In this document: one piece after another, positions 20,998 to 47,321 of the stretch | How the letters are laid out: each line of letters begins with the position of its first letter | Numbering within the stretch: the first letter of the stretch is position 1 | DNA from: Elusimicrobiota bacterium | GTDB taxonomy: Bacteria; Elusimicrobiota; Elusimicrobia; F11 | Direction of reading: 5' to 3' | NCBI GenBank assembly: GCA_044221725.1 | Contig: JBGAON010000004.1 | Coordinates: 160,001-224,000, forward strand | Length of the DNA: 64,000 bases | Made by a program: the position numbers and the translations under genes | The notes under the pieces: generated by a model | What the model saw: the letters and a program-made list of their open reading frames with translations, nothing else | Database searches by the model: none | Told to the model about the DNA's origin: nothing

Positions 20998-22743
20998 TTA
21001 GTTCAGAGATGTTTTGTCCTTTTCAAGGATGTCGGTCAATAGCGTGAGTACGCGCTTCTCTTCTTTTTCTTTGAAGCCCAAAATTTCGCGCAAACCGATG
21101 CCGATGTGCGGCAAGTATGACTTGATGTAATCTTTTTTGCGTTTCGCTTCGGCTTCGCGGTAACCGCGGCGAAGATAAGCATCCAAGCGGCGTCCGCACT
21201 CTTGGAGTGCCAAGCGAATTTCCTTTGTGATCTCCGGATAGGACGCCACTGCTTCTTTTGATTCGGAGGTGAACGGAACCCACACGCTTGCCATGTGAAC
21301 AGCGATCAAAAGCGGCCCTGTCGGCAGTGCACCCTTCGATTGATCGACTCCATAATTCTTCCACGCGGTAGTAAGAACACTTTTTGCGATGGCACACGCC
21401 GACTGTTGATAGAGAAGCGGTACGCGATTGGCGAATCGCATCACCTCGGCCAATTCTTCTTTCGGAAGCTCACCGCCATAAGCGAGCGCCACTTCAATCT
21501 GAAAGGGATTGCCGCGGTACACCGACGGTGGTCGCGTTTGCGACGTGTAAAAATCGGCATTGATGTTTTTCTTGATGCCTTGCAACAAATTATTTTCGCC
21601 GATGGGGGACAAGCAATTCGTTGGCGGGTTCATGAGCTTCGTGGCACCGATTGCTTTATGCAACTTGTCCGCTTCGTTATGAGCGATGTCGCCCGGTTTC
21701 GCGTTCGGGTCGATGCCCGCGGCCTTAAGAATGCTGTTCGCCACATTGGTCGACACGCGCGCGAAGTCGCGCGCGAGCATGGTCTTTACCGAGCGTGCGG
21801 CCGTGCTTTTCAGCATCTTCATGAGGATGCCAAGCTCAACACCGTGCGGATGTGGTTTGATTTCTTTCGGTTGAATCGGAAGCGCACGGCTGGCTGGTTT
21901 GTAATGTTCTTTGGTTCCATCCGGTCCCTTGTAAATCAGTTCAATGTGCGGGTTCGCGAGCGCGGTTTGGCGAATGTAGTCTTCGACGGAATGGCGGCCT
22001 TTCTGAAATTTAGCTTCGAGCTCAATCGAAACCTTCGTTCCGTGGGGTCGGTCCCATTTCACGACGTCATCTTTAATAACAGTGGGCTGATTCTTCGCAG
22101 TGTCGATTTGAATTTCAAAATAGTGCGCGGGCTTCTTCGCCGAAATGCGCGAGGTGATGCGCGTGGGGGAACCGGTCGTGAGTTGACCGTACATGCCGGC
22201 CGCCGAGATGCCGATGCCCTGTTGACCGCGGCTTTGTTTCATCGAATGGAATTTCGATCCGTAAAGCAACTTTCCGAAGATTCGCGGGATTTGTTCTTTC
22301 ACAACACCCGGTCCGTTGTCGGCCACTGTCACGACGAAACGGTCGCCGCCTTCCAGTTGTTTGATCCCAACGAGAATTTCGGGAGAAATCTTCGCTTCTT
22401 CGCAAGCGTCCAAACTGTTGTCGACCGCTTCGCGAACCGTGGTGAGCAATGCTTTCTTCGCGTTGTCGAAACCGAGCAGATGCCGGTTCTTTAAGAAAAA
22501 TTCGCTAACCGAAATGTCGCGCTGCTTCGCGGCCATTTTGTCGGCTTCGGTTTTTCCTGCTTGCGGGGTCGCTTTGGGTTTTTGTTCCGTTTCCTTTTCC
22601 GTCATCCTGGCGTGCTTTAAGCCAGGATCCATTTTGGCTGTGGATGAACGTGGGCCCTGGATAGAGGCATTCCCGGGCGACGATTTCTTGCCGGCTTGCT
22701 TGCTCTTCGCAGCTGTCTTAATTGGTTTGGGTTTCTTCTTCAA
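20998..22743 (-). CDS. top6B: DNA topoisomerase VI subunit B
   Basis: SVSEFF.KNRHLLGFD, EAVDNSLDACEEA, DNGPG, SRGQQGIGIS, RFANRVPLLY, VPFTSESKEA; start uncertain. Confidence 0.93.
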   Translation of the reverse strand: MKKKPKPIKTAAKSKQAGKKSSPGNASIQGPRSSTAKMDPGLKHARMTEKETEQKPKATPQAGKTEADKMAAKQRDISVSEFFLKNRHLLGFDNAKKALLTTVREAVDNSLDACEEAKISPEILVGIKQLEGGDRFVVTVADNGPGVVKEQIPRIFGKLLYGSKFHSMKQSRGQQGIGISAAGMYGQLTTGSPTRITSRISAKKPAHYFEIQIDTAKNQPTVIKDDVVKWDRPHGTKVSIELEAKFQKGRHSVEDYIRQTALANPHIELIYKGPDGTKEHYKPASRALPIQPKEIKPHPHGVELGILMKMLKSTAARSVKTMLARDFARVSTNVANSILKAAGIDPNAKPGDIAHNEADKLHKAIGATKLMNPPTNCLSPIGENNLLQGIKKNINADFYTSQTRPPSVYRGNPFQIEVALAYGGELPKEELAEVMRFANRVPLLYQQSACAIAKSVLTTAWKNYGVDQSKGALPTGPLLIAVHMASVWVPFTSESKEAVASYPEITKEIRLALQECGRRLDAYLRRGYREAEAKRKKDYIKSYLPHIGIGLREILGFKEKEEKRVLTLLTDILEKDKTSLN

Positions 22744-22789
22744 TGCGGGGGATAATGCCGAATTTGTAGTTGGGCGTCAAAAAAACCCT

Positions 22790-22814
22790 GGAACCTCGAC
22801 AATAAATTCACGTA
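22790..22814 (+). promoter_or_regulatory. ECF-type promoter GGAAC-N16-CGTA
   Basis: ggaac ctcgacaataaattca cgta, 12 nt before the extended SD. Confidence 0.65.
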
Positions 22815-22840
22815 TTATTTCTCAACAGGAGGTGATGCGT

Positions 22841-22882
22841 ATGAAACATGACAGTATCGTATACCAGGTGGTCTCCGCCTAA
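22841..22882 (+). CDS. 13-aa small ORF MKHDSIVYQVVSA
   Basis: AGGAGGTGAT (22827-22836), a 10-nt anti-SD complement, then ATG; own promoter and terminator. Confidence 0.55.
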   Translation: MKHDSIVYQVVSA

Positions 22883-22991
22883 CAGCGAACGTCTCGGGTA
22901 TCTCACTTTGAGGATCATTCGCATTCTGAACCTCTTCAGGAGACGCGGCCGATAAATGTTGCACCGGCGTACCTTCGGCCGGACCCCGCTG
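22883..22991 (+). ncRNA. Candidate structured RNA (multibranch) of unknown family
   Basis: Nested stems CAGCG/CGCTG, CGTCTC/GAGACG, CTCA/TGAG, CTGAA/TTCAG, CCGGC/GCCGG. Confidence 0.4.
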
Positions 22992-22995
22992 AATT

Positions 22996-23033
22996 AAAAA
23001 AGCCCGCGCTGTTAAACCCAGCGCGGGCTTTTT
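22996..23033. terminator. Bidirectional intrinsic terminator
   Basis: AAAAA-AGCCCGCGCTG-ttaaacc-CAGCGCGGGCT-TTTT between convergent units. Confidence 0.88.
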
Positions 23034-23051
23034 CATATAGGATTTATCGAT

Positions 23052-23309
23052 TTATTCACCGTGTACGATTAGGAAGAGTTGATACTGAATGTCTTCGAGC
23101 TCATTATCAACTTCGGTGCAATCGATACCATTTCTCAAACAACTTTCAAGCAGATCTTCGTAATACAATTCAAGCGCTTTTAGTCGGAGCACATCGGCAA
23201 GCGGGCCCACGGCGGGTGCCGGCCGTGGAACCGGATTGTCTGGAAGCACTTGAGTCCCGTCCATTCCCGCATAAACACCTTTTGGCATCGTGCATAAACC
23301 CACGATCAA
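23052..23309 (-). CDS. Small acidic helical hypothetical protein
   Basis: ORF ends just before the terminator; start uncertain. Confidence 0.5.
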   Translation of the reverse strand: MIVGLCTMPKGVYAGMDGTQVLPDNPVPRPAPAVGPLADVLRLKALELYYEDLLESCLRNGIDCTEVDNELEDIQYQLFLIVHGE

Positions 23310-37419: not shown

Positions 37420-37526
37420 AGCGCCTCCAACCCGTTTGGTATTTCTACGTCGAGCATCATACAAGGTTCCGAAAAACAAAAGAGCCAAGCCGCGCCCGCG
37501 CCTTGGCCCTCATTTAAACTCCGCGT

Positions 37527-45536: not shown

Positions 45537-47321
45537 ATGGGCATTCTGCTAAGTGGTCGCAACCTCACAAAAAGTTTTAGTTCTCGTCCGTTGTTCGAAG
45601 GGCTTTCGTTCGGTTTGTTTGAAAACGAACGAACGGGGCTTATCGGTCCGAACGGCGCGGGAAAATCCACGTTGCTAAAAATTATTGCTGGTTTGGAAAA
45701 GCCGGATGCGGGCGAGCTGTCGATGCGACGCGGCTTGCGTGTGAAATATTTGCCGCAACAAGATGTGTTCGACAATGCCACCAGTCGGACCGTGCGCGAC
45801 GAGTTGGTACACGCGCTACAAAATTTGGGTCTCGAAGATTGGGAAGTCGATGTGCGCGTTGACGAGGCTCTGGAAAACAGCGGCTTTAATCCCGATCAGA
45901 AAGTGGCCAGTTTATCGGGCGGTTGGCGCAAACGCCTCGCAATTTTGGGTCAAGTGTTGTGTCAGCCGGATTTGTTGCTATTGGATGAACCGACAAACCA
46001 TCTGGATTTGAACGGTGTCTTGTGGCTCGAGAGGTTTTTGCTCGAACAGAAATTTTCATTTCTCATGATTACGCACGACCGCCGGTTTTTGGAATCGGTT
46101 TCCAATCGCGTGATTGAACTCAACAAACGCTACGAAGACGGCCATTTCTCGAGCGTGGGCAATTACAGCGACTTCATCGAGAGCCGCGAAAAATTGTTTA
46201 GCGCACAGTCTCAGCGCGAAGACGCGACGCGCAACATCGTCCGACAAGAAATCGAATGGCTGCGCAAAGGTCCGAAGGCCCGCACAACGAAACAAAAGGC
46301 CCGCATCGATCGCGCGGGAGAGCTTATCGCGGATCTAAACGAACTTACGTATCGGAACGCGCAAGCAAAAACCGTGAACATTAATTTTTCGAGCAGCGAC
46401 CGTCGCAGCAAAAAGCTCATCGAATGCACGGGTATCGTAAAAAGCATGGGCGGAAAAAAGCTTTTTGGTCCGCTGGATTTTATGATGGGTCCCGGCGACA
46501 AGTTGGGTCTTTTGGGCGGGAACGGAAGCGGAAAGAGCACGCTGCTAAAACTTCTGGCCGGCACGTTGCCGCCCGATTCCGGCACCATCAAGCGCGCCGA
46601 TGCACTAAAGGTAATTACGTTCGATCAACACCGTGAGCAACTGAACAAAGATTGGCCTTTGCGCAAAGCGTTGTGCGAAAACGGCGAGAAAGTGGAATAC
46701 AAAGGCTCGTTCATTCATGTGGCCGGTTGGGCGGCGCGCTTTTTGTTCACAGCGGATCAGTTGGACAAGCCGCTTAGCAAACTTTCGGGCGGCGAACAGT
46801 CGCGCGTGTTGATCGCGCGCCTCATGCTTCGGCCGGCCGATATTTTGTTGCTCGACGAGCCGACGAACGATTTGGATATTAATTCGCTCGACGTGTTGGA
46901 AGCGAGCTTGAAAGATTTTCCCGGTGCGATTGTGCTCGTGACGCACGACCGTTATTTGTTGGACCGCGTCAGCAAACAAATCTTGGCATTGGACGGTAAA
47001 GGCAACGGCCGTTTTTTTGCGGATTTGGATCAATGGGAATCCTCCTTCGCAGACGAAACGGCGTCTGCTACGGAGGACAAGTCCATGCTGCCGACACCGC
47101 CGCTTAGCGAAAAACCCAAACCAGCGAAGAGTTCCAAAGAATTAAGAAAGGTGGAGGAACAGATCCAATTGTTGGAAGCGCAGTGCGAACAAGCAAAAGC
47201 CGCATTGGTTGATCCGGCGATTGCATCGAACGCGGCGGAACTTTTCTCCCGGCAGGAGGTCCTGGCCGCTCTGGAAAAGGAATTAGAAACGCTGATGCAA
47301 CACTGGGAATCGCTTAACTGA
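45537..47321 (+). CDS. ABC-F family ATPase (Uup-like)
   Basis: Two NBDs, KGPKARTTKQKAR linker, C-terminal coiled coil, no TM segments. Confidence 0.9.
   Translation: MGILLSGRNLTKSFSSRPLFEGLSFGLFENERTGLIGPNGAGKSTLLKIIAGLEKPDAGELSMRRGLRVKYLPQQDVFDNATSRTVRDELVHALQNLGLEDWEVDVRVDEALENSGFNPDQKVASLSGGWRKRLAILGQVLCQPDLLLLDEPTNHLDLNGVLWLERFLLEQKFSFLMITHDRRFLESVSNRVIELNKRYEDGHFSSVGNYSDFIESREKLFSAQSQREDATRNIVRQEIEWLRKGPKARTTKQKARIDRAGELIADLNELTYRNAQAKTVNINFSSSDRRSKKLIECTGIVKSMGGKKLFGPLDFMMGPGDKLGLLGGNGSGKSTLLKLLAGTLPPDSGTIKRADALKVITFDQHREQLNKDWPLRKALCENGEKVEYKGSFIHVAGWAARFLFTADQLDKPLSKLSGGEQSRVLIARLMLRPADILLLDEPTNDLDINSLDVLEASLKDFPGAIVLVTHDRYLLDRVSKQILALDGKGNGRFFADLDQWESSFADETASATEDKSMLPTPPLSEKPKPAKSSKELRKVEEQIQLLEAQCEQAKAALVDPAIASNAAELFSRQEVLAALEKELETLMQHWESLN

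Follow-up and report, generated by a model that had tools for sequence, protein, structure and literature searches.

The unit at positions 22790–23033 of the analysed window (the whole 64,000-nt stretch of Elusimicrobiota DNA) is best explained as a real, free-standing mini-mRNA of ~210 nt, probably distantly related to the Ms_IGR-5-type RNAs, that would act by ribosome binding rather than through its peptide; we put the probability of this explanation at roughly 0.55. The sequence-only reading had proposed a stand-alone dual-function RNA, with ribosome binding among its options, and a stand-alone, translated, ribosome-engaging small RNA with a strong Shine–Dalgarno sequence (SD) is still the best interpretation. 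Its further proposal, an undescribed new system, is probably wrong: a widespread family with kinship to Rfam Ms_IGR-5 has the same layout, ORF length, and stop register. The features of the unit and its neighbour are as follows:

22790–23033, + strand: mini-mRNA unit, free-standing, ~210 nt as a predicted RNA
22790–22814, + strand: candidate ECF-type promoter GGAAC-N16-CGTA, a sequence motif (GGAAC 22790–94, CGTA 22811–14)
22827–22836, + strand: first SD AGGAGGTGAT, with GAGGTG ending 6 nt ahead of the ATG
22841–22882, + strand: 13-codon ORF encoding MKHDSIVYQVVSA (ATG at 22841, TAA at 22880–82)
22866–22873, + strand: second 16S-tail match AGGTGGTC inside the ORF, 8 nt, with AGGTG ending 6 nt before the last sense codon
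22883–22991, + strand: 3′ untranslated domain, 109 nt, closed by CAGCG 22883–87 and CGCTG 22987–91
22890–95 and 22940–45, + strand: inner junction stem, CGTCTC with GAGACG, as seen in the sequence
22915–22936, + strand: segment pairing with the SD and AUG in the minimum-energy fold (alternative closed state)
22997–23033, both strands: intrinsic terminator, arms 22997–23011 and 23019–23033, 15/15 pairs
23052–23288, − strand: convergent 78-aa orphan ORF, a neighbour that has the terminator in common, membership in the unit not being implied

The elements named by the sequence-only reading (the letters of GGAAC-N16-CGTA, AGGAGGTGAT, the 13-codon ORF, the 109-nt CAGCG/CGCTG stretch, CGTCTC/GAGACG, and the terminator) are all found in the sequence at the places it gave. 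Overall, its observations were partly confirmed, and its interpretation is partly supported.

The unit sits between the divergent genes top6B-top6A (Pfam assignments) and the convergent 78-aa orphan ORF, which comes after an LMF gene. No gene lies downstream on the + strand, the next genes being on the − strand; hence, an attenuator is unlikely, as had been argued before. The terminator can probably also end the transcript of the 78-aa ORF, since A/T runs on both of its sides make it usable for both strands. The search for relatives of the 78-aa ORF among proteins of 42–137 aa retrieved only the ORF itself (Atlas hits, 0.78), and parts of it are covered by assembled contigs from two RNA runs. 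Among the relatives listed, those inspected carry different genes upstream of top6B, and synteny with top6B is not kept. Within top6B, a CGTC-tagged REP doublet (window 22600–22683) lies in frame in the N-terminal extension, and a similar insert is seen in top6B of a relative (G005). A REP origin was considered for the 3′ domain and rejected, as the CGTC-REPs of this genome differ.

The first SD matches the 3′ tail of the genome's own 16S rRNA perfectly over 10 nt (−17.7 kcal/mol), in agreement with the complementarity claimed for it earlier. Its description as extreme holds in that it is rare, the 10-mer having three copies in the 2.8-Mb genome, and fails in that it is an ordinary kind of SD in this lineage, because GGAGGTGA-N4-8-ATG is present in 12/12 genomes of the bacterial family. 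The second match, inside the ORF (AGGUGGUC in the RNA), has a pairing energy of −12.2 kcal/mol; matches as strong are seen at the corresponding positions in 15 of the 2,122 long ORFs, and AGGTG in this register in two of the 2,122 long ORFs of the genome. Its 6-nt spacing to the last codon equals the spacing of the first SD to the start codon; at the distance suited to initiation downstream of it, there is no start codon. AGGTGG sites with a stop in the same register are rare in this genome (only 9/796). The second match can alternatively form a local 6-bp hairpin with 22875–22880. The encoded 13-aa peptide is not hydrophobic, and, as the sequence-only reading had noted, a typical type I toxin is unlikely.

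The relatives were found with a search pattern composed of this SD and the AGGTGG of the ORF; its choice was prompted by a similar deltaproteobacterial family, and it succeeded only after several other patterns. It matched 24 of 251 genomes in the phylum of a Syntrophales MAG (G576). Three pattern matches are stand-alone short ORFs whose peptides end in TVICEVVTS, TVICEVAAS, and KVTCEVVSS. In the class of G727, which may be Binatia, the pattern occurs in 113 of 251 genomes, nearly all with a single copy, compared with 14 for the reversed pattern. Two family members score 33 and 23 bits with the Rfam model Ms_IGR-5 (RF02471, "Actinobacteria sRNA"; gathering threshold 45 bits), the consensus of which independently shows the same GAGGUG-to-stop register.

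Of 72 loci inspected, 70–71 fit the family pattern. The ORFs have 13, 14, and 15 codons at 23, 41, and 6 of 70 loci, respectively. The stop, which is absent from the search pattern, falls in one register at 71/71 loci, and Cys and Glu are found at 71/71, although the pattern also permitted Tyr and Gln. The end of the ORF (GGUGGYG) forms a helix with a 3′ CRCCACC that covaries (UA in 30 and CG in 5 of 35 sequences); in these 35 sequences, covariation comprises 16 two-sided cells versus 4.7 in shuffled data, a level reached in 0/500 shuffles. An invariant CACC loop is kept. In most members, a U-tract follows ~100–130 nt past the stop, and the neighbours vary, often being convergent; hence, family members stand alone, as does this locus. 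The energy of the second SD has a median of −12.4 in the family (genome median −2.9; this locus −12.2); since AGGTGG was in the pattern, both this energy and the invariance of AGGTGG in the family are circular. In the class of G727, many members (L405, L444–L473) have an extra conserved, GC-rich paired sequence ~60 nt upstream of the SD. Another subfamily of this class has a TTGACA-type promoter directly upstream of the SD, whereas this locus has the candidate ECF promoter.

The published sources, in their accessible parts, place IGR-5 of M. smegmatis between MSMEG_5794 and 5795 and call it validated and uncharacterised (bioRxiv 10.1101/2021.12.14.472595), give it the name ncMSMEG15794c (PMC10454040), and count it among the RNAs transcribed in Streptomyces (PMC8079986, PMC8780764); these parts of the four sources mention no ORF for it. 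Our literature searches gave no relevant hit for the peptide or for the idea of an internal SD, and, among the papers listed, none naming this kind of RNA in Binatia.

Whether the locus belongs to this family is answered differently by its layout, which says that it is a member, and by the profile models, which say that it is not. The locus and the Ms_IGR-5 relatives have in common a stand-alone unit of ~200 nt, the AGGAGGTG SD, a structured 3′ part, and a terminator, as well as (G/C)AGGTGG in the same stop register, with the stop five codons after a Glu/Gln codon. The ORF has 13 codons here and 13–15 codons in the relatives (70 loci), while the SD spacing is 6 nt here and 5, 7, or 8 nt at 71 loci. 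The peptide ends in SIVYQVVSA at the locus and in TVICEVVAS in the family, with Tyr-Gln-Val here instead of Cys-Glu-Val. The locus lacks the CACCACC partner for a helix of the Ms_IGR-5 type with its ORF (−15.9 versus a family median of −22.2; 231/300 shuffles as good), and its 3′ domain shows no likeness to the family 3′ domain above that of shuffles (120/300).

RF02471 has no match in the window and none in the genome at E ≤ 10. The covariance model R3, built from 35 family members with the locus excluded, scores 13/13 held-out members at 25–103 bits and this locus at 3.8 bits, on the SD only; nhmmer with the family does not detect the locus either. With the family peptide profile, the ORF is the first of 58 SD-led ORFs of 11–17 codons, a result that is partly circular; among 111,819 stops, its peptide ranks 82–131, and the six peptide positions outside the pattern place it in the top 6% (6,977/111,819). 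The top match of the peptide profile in the genome (window 45537–45580) is antisense to the start of an ABC-F gene, has no SD, and was rejected. The non-circular evidence of layout and peptide has a combined chance of roughly 1 in 1,400, a figure uncorrected for the use of several patterns. Kinship with the Ms_IGR-5-type family is, on this sequence evidence, a little better than even, and the locus is not filed as a member.

In the mechanism that we propose, the 30S subunit would load at the first SD, and the 13 codons would then be translated. Once the last codon occupies the P site and UAA the A site, AGGUGGUC would stand at the spacing of an initiation SD (6 nt), and the 16S tail could re-pair with it, so that the terminating or post-termination ribosome would be held beside the folded 3′ part. 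An RNA free of ribosomes could fold shut, with its own SD and AUG paired. The effect would probably be to hold ribosomes, or to make the stability and refolding of the RNA depend on translation. The idea of a second SD is weakened by the family helix, because the same bases pair in it; the conservation of GGUGG in the family could stem from the covarying CACCACC helix, with no ribosome contact. A broader view would have all Ms_IGR-5-type RNAs, including this one, be cross-phylum ribosome-holding mini-mRNAs, in which the ribosome is loaded at one SD and, on terminating, has its 16S tail gripped again by a second SD set at initiation spacing from the last codon; this copy, having lost Cys-Glu and the 3′ helix and kept both SDs and the stop register, would then be a natural experiment that locates the functional core in the register rather than in the peptide or the fold. 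We consider this view doubtful.

Folding analysis yields z = −4.5 for the whole unit, owed to the terminator. With the terminator removed (22822–22992), z is −0.81, and 39/200 shuffles are as good; for the 3′ part (22883–22992), z is −1.87, with 7/200 shuffles as good. The minimum-energy fold of the whole RNA is not the multibranch structure: the SD and AUG pair with 22915–22936 in a duplex of −19.1 kcal/mol (18/300 shuffles as good), and this closed fold lies ~7 kcal/mol below the open form. Keeping the ORF open, as a ribosome would, gives the multibranch in the predicted fold. Neither shuffles (z −0.8 to −1.9) nor homologues support the multibranch 3′ domain described earlier.

The ECF promoter at 22790–22814 is a plausible candidate. 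The letters of GGAAC-N16-CGTA are present as the sequence-only reading had them, although they do not exceed chance: the motif has 19 sites genome-wide, 3 of them intergenic, and spacers of 14, 15, 17, and 18 nt give 18–24 sites and 1–3 intergenic ones, i.e., there is no enrichment. The 600 nt upstream of each of nine alternative sigma genes contain no copy of the motif (0/9). A second copy of the motif in the window (37424–37470, − strand) lies 26 nt before a gene for a 165-aa hemerythrin-like protein, and copies of the GGAACTT type are repeated in some genomes of the class. The description of the RNA as stress-induced has this motif, not enriched in the genome, as its sole basis, and transcription under stress is possible.

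Searches for close homologues were made at several levels. At the gathering threshold, the only Rfam match in the whole window is tRNA-Ser; the comparison with Rfam suggested by the sequence-only reading thus finds no match to the unit. A scan by E-value gives 15 sub-threshold matches, mostly on the terminator. With blastn, only the terminator or pieces of 16–42 nt are matched in 60 relatives; three promoter-region matches in relatives fall inside genes and were discarded. Among 392 genomes of the class, six have matches of 18–40 nt (E 0.006–0.02), and among 400 genomes of the phylum, two have comparable short matches, none of these being a homologue; there is none in three genomes of the same genus either, one of them 100% complete. 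The single-sequence covariance model R1 gives one weak match in the 60 relatives and none elsewhere in its own genome; on further loci, it gives none in the 80 scanned out of a set of 119 and one SD-only match in 90 loci.

The pattern search in the class matches 8/392 other genomes, and none of the 7/9 loci translated is this unit. This pattern required GGAGGTGA with ATG, so that members with GGAGGTGG or a GTG start would be missed, and absence from Elusimicrobiota does not follow; 41/71 family loci have the 5-nt SD spacing typical of GTG starts. Inspection of ~90 of the ~100 GGAGGTGA-N4-8-ATG matches in genomes of the bacterial family shows no homologue. Scans of viral, phage, and plasmid sequences give no homologue of the unit, a metagenome scan gives six matches, all unrelated, and 10 genomes of other phyla give one pattern match, also unrelated. 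Protein searches with the antisense 73-aa frame, the frame read through the stop, and the 35-aa frame find no relative, and no relative encoding the peptide was found in the searches made. No homologue is seen in the Elusimicrobiota genomes searched; one variant of ~89% identity has an indel-free ORF.

This variant comes from public sequencing runs, four of which were compared as assembled contigs, which show neither strand nor transcription. DNA contigs of two studies are identical to the window over 22670–22893 and 22761–22944. A 266-nt contig of the RNA library X7 aligns over 22811–22984 at ~89%, with 17 differing letters and two gaps; the aligned part starts at the −10 box, and 94 letters of the contig stay unaligned. 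The gaps are 1-nt deletions at 22883 and 22926; neither falls within the ORF, whereas the frame read through the stop and the +1 35-aa frame would both be disrupted. Over 22977–23215, another X7 contig is identical to the window. By our reading of the coordinates, the two X7 contigs overlap by 30 nt, and the variant would be an allele beside identical downstream DNA. An allele joined to identical downstream DNA and unlike upstream DNA may have arisen through an exchange of alleles or through an element that integrates here.

Several other systems resemble the locus in part. In leaders of the Thr, Leu, and His attenuator type, hairpins and a terminator also come after a short ORF, and their Rfam models give sub-threshold scores here (25–28 bits), which come from the terminator alone; unlike the locus, such leaders have a regulatory codon run and a downstream gene on the same strand, both absent here. 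In known dual-function sRNAs (SgrS/SgrT, RNAIII, SR1, Pos19), a short ORF and an untranslated structured part are combined in one small transcript. Their ORFs are longer than the one here and have peptide functions shown, and they have no sequence relation to the locus. A tmRNA was rejected, as a normal tmRNA is encoded elsewhere in the genome and the locus has no tRNA-like match; 6S RNA was rejected for lack of a match at the locus, and RF00013 finds no 6S RNA anywhere in this 94% complete genome.

An uncatalogued RNA of Chloroflexota (L342–L369, e.g., L342:1535-1682) is found in 28/41 genomes around G394. It has a AGGAGGTGATGC SD, an ORF of 17–19 codons (MDNCSSSTGPxASP...), an internal anti-SD, a covarying stem, and a terminator, and nine of its loci have no Rfam match at gathering. 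Like the locus, this RNA (L159, L223) is stand-alone, with AGGAGGTGATGC, ATG, a short ORF with similar first codons, and a terminator; unlike it, the ORF is longer, contains the internal anti-SD, and lacks a stop-proximal SD (median −4.5). The model of this RNA scores only the first 45 nt of the locus (13.5 bits, genome-wide E 0.35), and R3 is weak on two of these RNAs (10.7 and 8.7 bits). An identity of this RNA with Rhodopirellula-1 was considered and is wrong, judging from PMC2864571.

Other tiny genes with an SD were seen as well. A stand-alone gene for a Cys-containing peptide of 9–10 aa (MGPKSPCGC type), with a GGAGGTG SD and a terminator, lies in this genome near position 613,500 (G000:C3) and at eight loci in other genomes of the bacterial family (L076, L082, L084, L372, L540, L552, L554, L558); in several cases, it is convergent with a metE-like gene, metE being our own reading. 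At L386:~1640 (− strand), a GGAGGTGA SD precedes a 17-aa Lys/Ala-rich ORF (MAAKKKKK...) and then a terminator. A viral contig of similar look (L606:401-459; AGGAGGTGG SD, 14-aa ORF ending in TWEVVRF, hairpin) was rejected, R3 giving it no score.

Against this background, the locus may instead be an ordinary, lineage-specific small-peptide gene, with the 13-aa peptide as its product and the likeness to the family due to convergence of strong SDs and short ORFs. Such a gene would fit the GGAGGTG SDs on other stand-alone tiny genes of the lineage, the failure of the family models at the locus, and the X7 variant, whose ORF has no indels; however, the stop register (9/796) and the second SD (15/2,122) would then be coincidences, a simple peptide gene would be expected to have a 3′ part shorter than ~110 nt, and the searches made found no relative encoding the peptide. 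We regard this explanation as unlikely, though deserving attention. That the arrangement is due to chance or decay in a variable intergenic spacer, in which the terminator alone is functional, serving the convergent genes, is distinctly improbable. It would account for the different genes upstream of top6B in the listed relatives that were inspected, for a body folding no better than shuffles, for a promoter motif with no enrichment, and for the lack of a homologue in the three same-genus genomes, but not for a promoter-like motif, a perfect SD, an optimally spaced ATG, and a terminator in the correct order, nor for a layout matching a conserved family, and the X7 variant aligns from the −10 box and not upstream of it.

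Two further explanations concern the RNA structure. In dual RNAs of the RNAIII type, C-rich loops pair with SDs of target mRNAs, and the unit could be a trans-acting antisense sRNA of this sort, its C-rich loops (CCUC 22931–34 and the CAC 22962–64 region) targeting SDs on other mRNAs while the ORF is translated only to stabilise or unmask it. The placement of CCUC in a hairpin loop of the ORF-open fold and the invariant CACC loop of the family are consistent with such a role; at this locus, however, neither statistics nor covariation supports the hairpins, and in the X7 variant the stem of the CCUC hairpin lacks its first base (deletion at 22926). We consider such a role very unlikely. A type I toxin-like mRNA, with the SD folded away and a +1-frame 35-aa ORF (22848–22955, MTVSYTRW...LRIIRILNLFRRRGR) encoding a cationic amphipathic toxin, is hardly credible. 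The SD-sequestered minimum-energy fold, the helical hydrophobic moment of the 35-aa peptide (up to 0.83), and the terminator in common with the convergent transcript speak for it, and are opposed by the distance of 15 nt between the ATG of this ORF and AGGAGG, the breaking of its frame by the two 1-nt deletions of the X7 variant, its absence from the protein collection (only four matches, to proteins of 856–2,355 aa), and the failure to identify an antitoxin promoter. A type I toxin–antitoxin system was rejected as such, given the non-hydrophobic 13-aa peptide, the 35-aa frame broken in the variant, and the lack of homologues.

A diverged mini-mRNA of the Ms_IGR-5 type acting by ribosome binding is, then, the explanation that we prefer. 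Ms_IGR-5 is catalogued as non-coding, yet nearly one in two of the sampled genomes of an unrelated class has a single copy of a relative, always with a perfect SD and an ORF of 13–15 codons. If the locus does not belong to them, it would be a tiny gene of a single species and of modest interest. If it does, this kind of RNA reaches Elusimicrobiota, and Cys-Glu and the ORF helix would be dispensable, while the two SD sites and the stop register are kept.
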